Of a stretch of DNA of 58,950 nucleotides, positions 10,562-58,352 are shown in pieces. Source of the DNA: an uncultured Pseudomonadales bacterium (GTDB lineage Bacteria > Patescibacteriota > Microgenomatia > UBA1400); contig CAZPUR010000004.1 of the NCBI GenBank assembly GCA_964589815.1, forward strand, positions 1-58,950, read 5' to 3'. The translations under genes were made by a program, and so were the position numbers. The first letter of the stretch is position 1. Each line of letters starts with the position of its first letter. The notes under the pieces are model-generated. The model was given only the letters and a program-made list of their open reading frames with translations, had not been told where the DNA came from and made no database searches.

Positions 10562-10610
10562 AAATTATCATCCAGAGGATGATCGTCCCCTGGATGAGGA
10601 ATTAGAAATT
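10556..10610. repeat. 33-bp palindromic insert flanked by 11-bp direct repeats
   Basis: aattagaaatt (10556-10566) atcatccagaggatgatcgtcccctggatgagg aattagaaatt (10600-10610). Confidence 0.8.
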
Positions 10611-20273: not shown

Positions 20274-20298
20274 TGCTTAATCATCCAGAGGACGATAA

Positions 20299-20736
20299 AT
20301 GTTAATTGGTAATTATCAGGGTAAATTAGATTTGGAAAAAGGAAGAACCGCTCTTCCCAAGAAGTTTCGTTCTTTATTGGGCAAAAAAGTAATTATTACC
20401 GCCGGATATGAGAAATCTTTAATGATTATTAGCCTTGACTCTTGGGAGAAAGTCGTCGGTCAGATTGTTAATAAGCCTTTTATTTCTGGTTCTGCCCGAG
20501 AAACTGACCGGTTTTTGCTTGGTTCTGCTTTTGAGGTAGAACTTGATAATCAGGGAAGAATGATTATTCCTGTTTCTTTAAGAAGTTATGCCGCTTTGTC
20601 CGCTGATATTGTTTTTGTTGGCATCGGCAATCGAGTTGAAGTTTGGGATCAGACAGGCTGGGAAAAACACCAGCAATATTTAGATGAAAATATCAGCCAG
20701 ATAAGCGAGAAACTTGATGAAACAGAGAACAAATAG
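20299..20736 (+). CDS. mraZ: Transcriptional regulator MraZ
   Basis: GRTALPKKFR, ELDNQGRMIIP, GIGNRVEVWD. Confidence 0.95.
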   Translation: MLIGNYQGKLDLEKGRTALPKKFRSLLGKKVIITAGYEKSLMIISLDSWEKVVGQIVNKPFISGSARETDRFLLGSAFEVELDNQGRMIIPVSLRSYAALSADIVFVGIGNRVEVWDQTGWEKHQQYLDENISQISEKLDETENK

Positions 20737-56329: not shown

Positions 56330-56381
56330 GGGTCCATAGCTTGAGCCAGAGGCTCATCGTCCTCTGGACGGCAGTGGTAGA
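56330..56381 (+). pseudogene. tRNA-Val 5' fragment with palindrome inserted in the D-arm
   Basis: gggtcca-tagct-[tgagccagaggctcatcgtcctctggacgg]-cagtggtaga, ending 3 nt before the GIY-YIG ATG. Confidence 0.7.
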
Positions 56382-56384
56382 TAG

Positions 56385-56636
56385 ATGTTTTACTATGTTT
56401 ATTTACTAATAAGCCTTAAAAACGGGAAAACCTATGTTGGTTTTACGAGCAAACAGCCCCAACAACGTCTGGTAGAACACAACATGGGCGTTAATAAATG
56501 GACAAAGCAAAACGGTCCTTTTAAATTGATATATTGGGAAAAGTTTTTTTGTAAAAAAGATGCCATCATGAGAAAAAAATTTTTTAAAAGTGGACAAGGA
56601 AAGAAATTAAAACAGATAATAGTTAAATATTATTAG
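56385..56636 (+). CDS. Small GIY-YIG nuclease family protein (catalytic Glu apparently replaced by Lys)
   Basis: YYVYLL..TYVGFT..RLVEHN..YWE..AIMRKKFFKSG. Confidence 0.88.
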   Translation: MFYYVYLLISLKNGKTYVGFTSKQPQQRLVEHNMGVNKWTKQNGPFKLIYWEKFFCKKDAIMRKKFFKSGQGKKLKQIIVKYY

Positions 56637-56641
56637 ATTTT

Positions 56642-56713
56642 GGGCTCGTAGCTCAGTGGTAGAGCGTTCCGTTCACATCGGAGAGGTCATAGGTTCAATC
56701 CCTATCGAGCCCA
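56642..56713 (+). tRNA. tRNA-Val(CAC)
   Basis: Acceptor gggctcg/cgagccc, D-arm gctc/gagc, anticodon ttccg-ttCACat-cggag, T-arm atagg-ttcaatc-cctat; CCA not encoded. Confidence 0.95.
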
Positions 56714-56783
56714 CTATTTTAATAATCTAGTTGTTCCCAAAAAATAGATTGTAGTAGAAGGGCAATGTGAAATCGTTCTACCA

Positions 56784-56997
56784 GGGTCCATAATAGCTTG
56801 AGCCAGAGGCTCACCGTCCTCTGGACGGCAGTGGTAGAGCGTTCGGTTCACATCCGAAAGGCCCCCTGGTTCAAATCCAGGCACGGTCACTAGCTTTGGC
56901 AGGCGGGTCCGAAAGGTCAGAGGTTCGATACCTCTCGAGTCCACAAGTCCAGTCTGGCGGGTCGTAGGGGTTGATGGTTCAAGTCCATCTGGACCCA
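56784..56997 (+). other. Composite tRNA-Val relic: interrupted 5' half plus three stacked 3' halves
   Basis: gggtcca, D-arm with palindrome, ttcgg-ttCACat-ccgaa, then T-arms at 56865, 56919 and 56973; final tggaccc-a pairs with the 5' gggtcca. Confidence 0.75.
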
Positions 56998-57011
56998 CAA
57001 ATTAAATAAAC

Positions 57012-57377
57012 TTGCCCAGAAAAAGGTTGATTATATTTGTGAGAGAGAAAGTAGGAAAAAAAAGTAGGGGATGGCTTGTAGGACAGCCAGGCTATGTTGC
57101 TGTTGCCAGAACTAAGGATGGTGAGATTAGAAGAGGTTTTCTTTGTCCCCAATTTACTGTTAACAATGCCCAAAGATATGCAGGGACCTCAGAGCACAAC
57201 TTAAGACGATGTGGTTTTTTAACTAATCTGAATGTGACTGATTTTAATCAAGGAATAGATTGTTTTATTGAAGCCTTAGGATTCCCAGCCAGCAGACTAG
57301 ATAAGGGGATAGAGGCTTTCCATGAGGCGGAATATGGATCAAGAGTAGATGTTCAAGGATTTGATATTGAAGATTAA
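57012..57377 (+). CDS. Hypothetical protein (start uncertain)
   Basis: 121-aa ORF; no family recognised. Confidence 0.45.
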   Translation: MPRKRLIIFVREKVGKKSRGWLVGQPGYVAVARTKDGEIRRGFLCPQFTVNNAQRYAGTSEHNLRRCGFLTNLNVTDFNQGIDCFIEALGFPASRLDKGIEAFHEAEYGSRVDVQGFDIED

Positions 57378-57848: not shown

Positions 57849-58352
57849 ATGAGAAACTTTAACCCAGGTAATAGATCAAGAGACAGAAGAGATTTTCCCA
57901 GAAGGAGTTTTGGCGATAGAGATTCAAGAAGGCCTTCATTATATGATGCAGTTTGTGATGAATGCGGTAAAGATTGCCAAGTGCCTTTTAAGCCAAGCGG
58001 CAAGAAGCCAGTATATTGCAGTGATTGTTTTGAGAAAAAAGGCGGAAGCAATGGTAATAGATCAAGAGACAGAAGAGATTTTCCCAGAAGGAGTTTTGGC
58101 GATAGAGATTCAAGAAGGCCTTCGCAAAGCAATATAAATAATCGCAGCATTTCCCAGCTTGTAGAAAAAATTGAAATTCTAAATACTAGGCTTGATACAA
58201 TTATTGGCTTGCTATCGTCAGCCGGAGAGAAAAAACCAAAGTTAGTAGAGAATAAGACGAAAAAGAGCAAAAAATCAACAATCAAGAAAACAGGTAAAGC
58301 CATTCAAGTGTTAACGCCAGTCGAGAAAAAGATGCCTAAGAAAAAAAGCTAA
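57849..58352 (+). CDS. CxxC-x17-CxxC domain protein
   Basis: YDAVCDECGKDCQVPFKPSGKKPVYCSDCF; GGAG RBS; upstream ttgcta-N18-tatact. Confidence 0.85.
   Translation: MRNFNPGNRSRDRRDFPRRSFGDRDSRRPSLYDAVCDECGKDCQVPFKPSGKKPVYCSDCFEKKGGSNGNRSRDRRDFPRRSFGDRDSRRPSQSNINNRSISQLVEKIEILNTRLDTIIGLLSSAGEKKPKLVENKTKKSKKSTIKKTGKAIQVLTPVEKKMPKKKS
57867..58123 (+). repeat. Exact 71-bp direct repeat inside the CxxC gene
   Basis: 57867-57937 equals 58053-58123. Confidence 0.9.

Follow-up and report, generated by a model that had tools for sequence, protein, structure and literature searches.

A stack of partial tRNA genes beside an intact tRNA-Val gene, probably left by a cassette of hairpin element, GIY-YIG nuclease gene and tRNA

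In the 58,950-nt stretch of DNA from an uncultured bacterium analyzed here (the window), the tRNA-Val(CAC) gene at 56642-56714 is flanked on both sides by partial tRNA genes, most of which lie in a stack at 56784-56997. We think it probable, at about 0.6, that a cassette consisting of a 30-nt double hairpin (HP), a GIY-YIG nuclease gene and a tRNA gene left this stack as dead tRNA-Val pieces beside its working copy. The stack itself is most likely non-functional wreckage. This reading is carried by direct observations, namely the architecture of the locus, its recurrence at many tRNA genes, the covariation within HP, and the complementarity of the outermost tRNA fragments in two genomes.

The stack opens with the displaced 5' part of a tRNA-Val gene and continues with three modules, each comprising a T arm and an acceptor 3' strand (Table 1). 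A first-pass annotation, made from the letters alone, had described it in this way, and the description holds. The palindrome in the D arm and the CAC anticodon arm can be read directly from the sequence, and a strict T-arm motif (5-bp stem, TTCRANN loop) matches four times on both strands of the window, at the intact tRNA and the three modules, against about 0.3 matches expected in random sequence. ARAGORN called no tRNA within 56784-56997. The annotation had, however, counted a single interrupted 5' half, and a second one was found at 56330-56381, upstream of the GIY-YIG gene. The nuclease gene, too, had escaped the annotation, and the two together alter how the locus is read.

Module 1 is contiguous with the CAC anticodon arm, and the resulting pseudogene is 96% identical to the intact tRNA over positions 13-38. 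The segment 56827-56889 reached 25.7 bits with the Rfam tRNA model, under the gathering score of 29, and the strand GACCGTG that would pair with the acceptor CACGGTC of module 1 is absent from the entire window. In a comparison with 86 tRNAs, module 2 was closest to the 3' half of the intact tRNA-Val (29 of 36 positions identical); it agrees at 28 of 36 with the Val(TAC) tRNA of L020 (labels of this kind mark the other loci and contigs compared). The earlier assignment of the modules to tRNA-Val is thus upheld for modules 1 and 2, whereas module 3 is not assignable to an isotype. The predicted pairings were both confirmed: CGAGTCC of module 2 pairs with GGGCTCG of the intact tRNA through one G.U, and TGGACCC of module 3 is the exact complement of GGGTCCA. 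Overall, the modules share 22-29 of 36 positions with the intact 3' half, with differences scattered across the stems. The T stems of modules 1-3 differ from one another with all changes compensated, and the same is true of modules 1 and 2 relative to the intact gene. Because these differences are fully compensated, the modules should go back to three genes, each functional in its own right, rather than to a recent tandem duplication.

Modules 2 and 3 form equal 54-nt units of a 19-nt linker and a 35-nt 3' half. Both linkers end in GGCGGGT, as had been noticed before, and linker 1 opens with a trailer-like CTA that is also seen 3' of the intact tRNA. GGCGGG or GCGGGG directly 5' of displaced 3' fragments occurs in L020, L033 and L044 as well. 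By eye, the linkers might be taken for collapsed HP copies (compare HP variants ending ...TCTGGCGGG), but the HP covariance model misses them and we keep this only as a weak idea.

Table 1. Features of the tRNA-Val locus in the window.
Feature	Position	Strand	Evidence
Copy A, displaced tRNA-Val 5' part: GGGTCCA, U8 A9, G10-U12 (TAGCT)	56330..56341	+	sequence
HP copy A TGAGCCAGAGGCTCATCGTCCTCTGGACGG, between tRNA positions 12 and 13	56342..56371	+	exact pattern; 46.2 bits, E=9e-10
D-loop and D-stem remainder CAGTGGTAGA	56372..56381	+	tRNA sequence ends 3 nt before GIY-YIG start codon
Stand-alone GIY-YIG nuclease domain, 83 aa, UPF0213/YhbQ type	56385..56636	+	Pfam PF01541, E=1e-14
Intact tRNA-Val(CAC), acceptor GGGCTCG/CGAGCCC	56642..56714	+	ARAGORN; Rfam tRNA 69.7 bits
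AT-rich spacer, 69 nt, intact tRNA to copy B	56715..56783	+	sequence; analogous 59-nt spacer in L020
Copy B, displaced 5' part: GGGTCCA-TA, 3-nt insertion, TAGCT	56784..56798	+	sequence
Acceptor 5' strand GGGTCCA	56784-56790	+	read from sequence
TAATAGCT	56791-56798	+	read from sequence
HP copy B TGAGCCAGAGGCTCACCGTCCTCTGGACGG, two hairpins, each 6 bp with 3-nt loop	56799..56828	+	46.7 bits, E=7e-10 (covariance model)
Remainder of tRNA-Val(CAC) pseudogene (D loop, anticodon arm, T arm, module 1)	56829..56889	+	
CAGTGGTAGAGCG	56829-56841	+	read from sequence
Anticodon arm TTCGG-TTCACAT-CCGAA	56842-56858	+	read from sequence
Module 1 T arm	56865-56881	+	read from sequence
Module 1 acceptor 3' strand CACGGTC-A	56882-56889	+	read from sequence
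Linker 1 CTAGCTTTGGCAGGCGGGT, 19 nt, ends GGCGGGT	56890..56908	+	sequence
Module 2, 3' half: CCGAA-AGGTC-T arm-CGAGTCC-A	56909..56943	+	T-arm motif
Linker 2 CAAGTCCAGTCTGGCGGGT, 19 nt, ends GGCGGGT	56944..56962	+	sequence
Module 3: T arm GATGG-TTCAAGT-CCATC and TGGACCC-A	56963..56997	+	7/7 complementary to GGGTCCA

Read from 5' to 3', the locus consists of a 5' fragment with HP, the GIY-YIG gene, the intact tRNA-Val, a spacer, a second 5' fragment with HP and the rest of the Val pseudogene, and two further 3' halves. The two HP copies differ in 1 nt. The closest solved structures to the 83-aa GIY-YIG protein, 1ywl and 1zg2, are both UPF0213 proteins. As in a homing cassette, the endonuclease open reading frame (ORF) adjoins its likely target gene, 3 nt from the fragment and 5 nt from the intact tRNA-Val. 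The latter is the working copy and presumably travels with the cassette. Diverged partial copies of this target surround the ORF, with GGGTCCA of copy A fully complementary (7/7) to TGGACCC at 56990-56996 and unlike the GGGCTCG/CGAGCCC pair of the intact tRNA.

The same bracket is found in a second genome. L139 is syntenic with the window and contains ParB, a signal peptidase (SPase, 52% identity), GIY-YIG (56% identity) and tRNA-Val(CAC). Its 5' fragment reads GGGCGCA-TAGCT-HP-CAGCGGTAGAGCG-TTGCA-TT, its intact tRNA has the acceptor GGCCGAT/ATCGGCC, and directly 3' of this tRNA follow a T arm with extra loop sequence and TGCGCCC-A. Here, GGGCGCA and TGCGCCC pair 7/7, and TGCGCCC does not pair with the intact tRNA in between; in the window, GGGTCCA and TGGACCC-A enclose GGGCTCG/CGAGCCC in the same manner. 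Because the outer 5' and 3' fragments pair perfectly, in both genomes an older tRNA-Val gene is split, with a GIY-YIG gene and a different intact tRNA-Val inside. L004 has an SPase gene followed by tRNA-Val(CAC) without cassette or fragments, although its SPase is only 53% identical to that of the window; the SPases of window, L139 and L004 are about equidistant (51-53% identity).

Furthermore, the cassette recurs at other tRNA genes. In other contigs, tRNA-His, Asp, Pro and Val genes directly follow GIY-YIG homologs of 51-81% identity. Retrieval by GIY-YIG protein similarity alone gave cassettes at tRNA-His (L015), tRNA-Asp (L016 and L017/L018), tRNA-Pro (L138 and L140) and tRNA-Val (L139). 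With a covariance model built from other HP copies, HP was found at 30-43 bits no more than about 100 nt upstream of the ORF in all homolog loci that had upstream sequence; the model found nothing in the cassette-free SPase loci L004-L007. In most of the homolog loci HP lies inside a tRNA 5' fragment, and an intact tRNA of the same type directly follows the ORF. In L017/L018, HP is immediately 5' of the ORF, and a 5'-half fragment (acceptor '...TCG' and D-arm TAGCTCAGTTGGTTAGAGCG) is positioned between ORF and tRNA. A mirror arrangement, with the intact tRNA first, then GIY-YIG and a 3' fragment, occurs in L015 and L033. Retrieval by the HP pattern added loci of matching architecture at tRNA-Pro (L020), Ser (L114, L107) and Gln (L085, L055). 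L020 repeats the window layout, with fragment and HP, ORF, intact tRNA-Pro, a 59-nt spacer and a second HP-bearing tRNA-Pro copy. In at least 20 contigs, an intact tRNA lies between incomplete copies of itself; those upstream are 5' pieces, and those downstream are 3' pieces, which usually have HP in the T loop. Stacks like the one in the window, for which a search had been recommended, are indeed present in metagenome contigs, with at least five tandem 3' fragments in L114, three in L053 and two in L044. The window's stack is one instance of this recurrent self-copy pattern. The window GIY-YIG protein is 81% identical to an Asp-associated homolog, 72% to a His-associated one and 56% to the syntenic Val-associated homolog of L139. 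Since it is closer to the His and Asp copies than to that of L139, these sequence identities would favor movement between tRNA genes over simple vertical descent without settling the matter.

Two of these contigs hold unusual tRNA copies. At 4691-4795 of L020, a tRNA-Pro copy carries HP in its D loop and, in place of the entire anticodon arm, the single hairpin CCCGCC-AGC-GGCGGG. On the minus strand of L044 (about 1215-1097), a tRNA-Asp copy without the 5' acceptor strand has a different, GC-ended palindrome of about 48 nt in the D loop (CCCGCCCGAACGA...TCGGGCGGG), and this copy is part of a segmental repeat of tRNA-Asp pieces of about 390 nt.

HP is a pair of hairpins maintained by compensatory change. 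Its 30 nt form two adjacent 6-bp hairpins with the loops AGA and TCT, which are complementary to each other, and an exact-pattern scan found it in at least 119 metagenome contigs. Positions left free in the search pair with their partners in 83-95% of 117 contexts, and paired cells in the alignment amount to 88.5%. The covariation score is 0.22 versus 0.077 in shuffled alignments, of which 0 of 500 reach 0.22, and slid controls remain at or below 0.051. Pair 3/13 occurs as C-G, G-C, A-U, U-G or U-A, and pairs 16/30, 18/28 and 19/27 also vary. HP is typically found in the D or T loops of tRNA fragments; its sites are T loops (GGTTC-HP-GAATCC), D arms or D loops, and other hairpin loops. The sequences flanking it pair with each other in 38 of 109 contexts versus 14.6 in permuted controls, an enrichment for hairpin loops. 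As expected for a short mobile double hairpin, there are many dispersed copies as well as precise filled and empty sites: intact tRNA and fragment of the same locus differ by exactly the 30-mer, between GGGTTC and GAATCC in L114 and between TAGCT and CAGTGG in the window. HP is not an intron of working tRNAs, as 117 of the 120 HP-bearing tRNA pieces are fragments; its excision yields a complete tRNA in only 3 contexts, all three with poor acceptor stems. A phage element was likewise rejected, with zero matches of the HP pattern in 2.9 million viral contigs. Rfam has no family for HP or for the stack, either at the gathering threshold on the window and 17 loci or at E<=10 on 56500-57200.

Some further sequences are related to HP. 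A double hairpin that resembles HP but has diverged, TCATCCAGAGGATGATCGTCCCCTGGATGA (19.8 bits, E=0.003), occupies 10568-10597 of the window, between two ORFs, and has on either side the 11-nt direct repeat AATTAGAAATT, which could be a target-site duplication. A half-HP hairpin, TCATCC-AGA-GGACGA, at 20281-20297 lies 2 nt 5' of the ATG of the ORF 20299-20736. L015 contains two tandem 73-nt units at 176-321, each with a tRNA-Lys 5' fragment, HP and 20 nt; they differ solely by four compensatory changes in HP hairpin 2 (TCAGCC/GGCTGA vs TCGTCC/GGACGA), as though an HP variant had been exchanged for a different one. In L114 (1236-1265), HP has CCGGAGG/CCTCCGG instead of CCAGAGG/CCTCTGG. The two changed bases lie in the two hairpin loops and are mutually complementary, a hint that loop-to-loop pairing, i.e., a long hairpin, also matters.

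From the above, we propose a cassette that would comprise HP, a minimal 83-aa GIY-YIG gene and a complete tRNA, the same isoacceptor as that of the gene which it disrupts. It would have inserted in an older resident tRNA-Val gene, whose 5' part (GGGTCCA..., with HP in the D arm) was presumably left upstream of the nuclease gene and whose original 3' end, probably module 3 (...TGGACCC-A), came to lie farthest downstream. The intact tRNA-Val next to the nuclease gene would maintain the tRNA-Val(CAC) supply. Modules 1 and 2 may come from two other once-functional tRNA-Val genes and could most simply have remained from earlier rounds of replacement, the nuclease genes of which were later lost by deletion, in an order of events that we infer. 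The GIY-YIG protein is predicted to cut tRNA genes. It has only 83 aa and no DNA-binding domain, and the genes at which it occurs represent many tRNA isotypes and involve two different arms. It may thus recognize the hairpin or cruciform shape of a D or T arm rather than a long sequence. The cassette might spread by break repair from a cassette-bearing copy with co-conversion, or by recombination at the HP-bearing arm. The carried tRNA would keep the host viable and make the cassette hard to lose, and HP in the leftover arm might block re-cutting or stabilize the transcript from the old tRNA promoter.

Several points weigh against this reading. Both the nuclease activity and the mobility are predictions. 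If insertions had simply been nested, one would expect, upstream of the nuclease gene, 5' remnants of the tRNAs that gave rise to modules 1 and 2, but there are none. Copy B, which joins a duplicate of the resident 5' strand to the body of module 1, is located downstream of the intact tRNA, a position that simple nesting leaves unaccounted for. ORF and tRNA have a copy of the HP-bearing arm on either side in the window, in L020 and in L114, a duplication that points to recombination at this arm. Hybrids between rounds, such as GGGTCCA with CGAGTCC, would have lacked a paired acceptor stem, and because of this whole tRNAs would have to be exchanged in each round. The cassette at the SPase locus could also be old and vertically inherited, since window and L139 are about as similar in GIY-YIG (56%) as in SPase (52%); in that case, retention of the fragments would hint at a function. 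With six identical stacks and 4 single-nucleotide polymorphisms (SNPs) in 5.4 kb, the population evidence is neither for nor against constraint.

The first-pass annotation had offered two interpretations, of which repeated insertion and repair at tRNA genes is supported in outline by the recurrent GIY-YIG and HP cassette. The other, a precursor processed or recombined into alternative tRNAs, is not supported, because no combination of a 5' half and a 3' module that we tried gave a canonical cloverleaf; each join breaks the acceptor or the anticodon stem. The 5' part of copy B has a broken acceptor stem with modules 1 and 2, and with module 3 a perfect acceptor stem but a broken anticodon stem. 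The intact 5' part and module 2 form an acceptable acceptor with one G.U, with one C.C mismatch in the anticodon stem. ARAGORN does call a Val tRNA after in silico removal of HP, one in which the acceptor strands GGGTCCA and CACGGTC do not pair. A splicing device was not found either: there was no match to a group I or II intron family or, in the stack, to any other Rfam family (window at the gathering threshold, 56500-57200 at E<=10), the inserted 30-mer forms two triloop hairpins instead of a bulge-helix-bulge, and the archaeal bulge-helix-bulge splicing system is, to our knowledge, lacking in bacteria. More broadly, the 214-nt stretch could be transcribed and used as an alternative tRNA-Val precursor, as a tRNA-like decoy or as a processing element. 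Its three perfect T arms, the GGGTCCA/TGGACCC ends that close the fold, a promoter-like match ending at 56794, and the retention of fragment and HP arrangements across lineages at 52% SPase identity are in agreement with such a role. The 214-mer also folds better than shuffled sequences (z = -3.1 on the plus and -3.3 on the minus strand), but this z-score is expected from three T-arm hairpins, HP and complementary ends alone. Together with the unsuccessful foldings and the fragmentary state of HP-bearing tRNA pieces elsewhere, this makes a functional RNA very improbable.

Downstream 3' fragments are also known as scars of tRNA-targeting integrases, which leave partial tRNA 3' copies downstream of an intact tRNA gene, as in the window, and are a known source of partial tRNA genes (PMC9897764). 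Serial phage or island integration in the tRNA-Val anticodon loop by a tyrosine integrase (attB/attP), followed by loss of the elements, would displace 3' halves that start at the anticodon-loop edge, with the original one last, and would leave attR-like remnants. The window indeed has three displaced 3' segments downstream of the intact gene, and the shared GGCGGGT of both linkers could be an element end. However, the modules are merely 19 nt apart with no element body between them, no block of identity connects them with the intact 3' half apart from generic tRNA positions, and no integrase was found among the genes neighboring the locus, to which this search was confined. The 5' fragment upstream, HP in the D arm, a motif not matched in viral contigs, and the recurrent GIY-YIG gene would be left unexplained, and we consider integrase scars quite unlikely. 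An eroded tandem array, in which several tRNA-Val genes lost their 5' parts by deletion, possibly between hairpin elements and without any cassette, would account for intact but mutually different T arms as well as for the equal 54-nt units. Yet the 59-kb window contains no second tRNA gene, and the locus has just one tRNA-Val(CAC) in relatives. Such an array also leaves unaccounted for the 5' fragment before the nuclease gene, the complementary brackets of both genomes, and the recurrence of this architecture at tRNA-His, Pro, Ser, Gln and Asp genes, and it seems unlikely. Finally, short-read assemblers can go wrong at short repeats such as tRNA arms, and reads from several tRNA-Val genes might have been joined. 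Five further contigs (L001, L002, L003, L013 and L014, from JGI and Logan samples) match the stack base for base, giving six independent assemblies from different samples and pipelines with identical junctions, and analogous stacks exist in unrelated contigs. As far as short-read data allow, we thus reject misassembly, the chance of which is negligible.

If the stack is what a cassette left behind, the closest known arrangement is that of the mobile ORFs (mORFs) of fungal mitochondria, where an endonuclease ORF is inserted together with a foreign partial gene copy (Allomyces atp6; Glomus atp6, atp9, cox2 and nad3; PMC3630166). The mORF in atp9 encodes a GIY-YIG enzyme, and the native gene part remains downstream, unexpressed and diverged from the inserted part (PMC3630166). 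The window likewise combines a nuclease ORF with a foreign copy that works and with native pieces that are displaced. In contrast, its target is a bacterial chromosomal tRNA gene, a whole tRNA is carried instead of a gene end, remnants lie on both sides, the 83-aa ORF has no DNA-binding domain, and the 30-nt HP is always present. In bacteriophage T4, the free-standing GIY-YIG homing endonuclease SegB is encoded between tRNA genes of a tRNA gene cluster, cuts the tRNA gene region of a related genome and is co-inherited with flanking tRNA sequence (PMC2330249). SegB, however, is a full-length phage homing enzyme for which partial tRNA duplications or a hairpin element are not described, whereas the window element is cellular. 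HP itself resembles the double-hairpin elements, repetitive hairpin-forming elements and GC clusters of mitochondria, which are short, dispersed and apparently mobile; they have one or two adjacent hairpins with conserved stems, lie between genes as well as within RNA genes, and have no known function (PMC2800124). Unlike these, HP is bacterial, has exactly 30 nt and complementary loops (AGA/UCU), is enriched in tRNA D and T loops, and is constantly linked to one GIY-YIG subfamily. In principle, combinable tRNA pieces are also known from archaeal split, tri-split and multi-intron tRNA genes. Archaeal split tRNAs need bulge-helix-bulge junctions, complementary leaders and the archaeal splicing endonuclease. 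No such features were found in the window, and its piece combinations do not fold as tRNAs.

The arrangement stands apart from these known systems by its bacterial tRNA target, whole-tRNA cargo, minimal enzyme and obligatory 30-nt hairpin. Our literature searches turned up nothing specific on the HP motif or on GIY-YIG/tRNA cassettes in bacteria of the candidate phyla radiation (CPR), and the cassette family apparently is undescribed. Tentatively, we may go further and regard HP, GIY-YIG and tRNA as a new mobile-element family of ultrasmall, CPR-like bacteria, with a structure-specific nuclease, a carried tRNA and HP as a mark. A domain-only and probably structure-specific nuclease would then attack the hairpin-forming arms of tRNA genes, and the element would split the resident gene and bring its own copy of the same tRNA. 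The host could not lose such an element, because loss would remove an essential tRNA. HP might be the element end or an immunity mark that also spreads alone into hairpin loops, and the stacks would be a readable record of successive tRNA replacements and horizontal tRNA exchange.

The window is bacterial DNA with a G+C content of 30-43% and densely packed genes, and its only tRNA gene according to ARAGORN and Rfam is the intact tRNA-Val(CAC). Upstream of the locus are IleRS, RodA/FtsW (both named from translations only), L21, L27, ParB and SPase; downstream are an orphan ORF, a DUF2061 protein and a zinc-finger protein. The nearest SPase relatives among species genomes are metagenome-assembled genomes labeled Saccharibacteria and Moranbacteria, in a scan that gave distant relatives only; on this basis, the organism is CPR-like. 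The second strain (L013/L014) differs from the window by 4 SNPs in the 5.4 kb compared and by none in the stack; three of the four, at 56334, 56382 and 56574, affect the upstream tRNA fragment and GIY-YIG gene. A 94-aa ORF on the minus strand (56714-56998) is antisense to the end of the intact tRNA and the entire stack. Public assemblies annotate it as a gene (L001 1872-2156, L013 3127-3411), but a Pfam search gave no match and it is almost certainly spurious. The ORF directly 3' of the stack, 57012-57377, codes for 121 aa (112 aa in public data). Among 5.8 billion proteins its only homolog is itself, no Pfam family matches, and we dropped it as a clue to the stack. Within the zinc-finger ORF 57849-58352 (PF23477), an exact 71-nt direct repeat (57867-57937 and 58053-58123) makes the segment RDRRDFPRRSFGDRDSRRPS occur twice.

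Although the stack is most likely debris, it exposes a recurrent arrangement of nuclease, tRNA and HP in genome-reduced bacteria. If the proposed mechanism is true, such cassettes would be a source of false or confusing tRNA-related predictions in metagenome-assembled genomes, as exemplified by the antisense 94-aa ORF called as a gene. They would further point to possible structure-guided DNA targeting by an enzyme of only 83 aa. For organisms with one copy per tRNA, the cassette would provide a route for horizontal tRNA replacement, and bacteria would have in it an equivalent of the mitochondrial mobile ORFs by which gene ends are exchanged.

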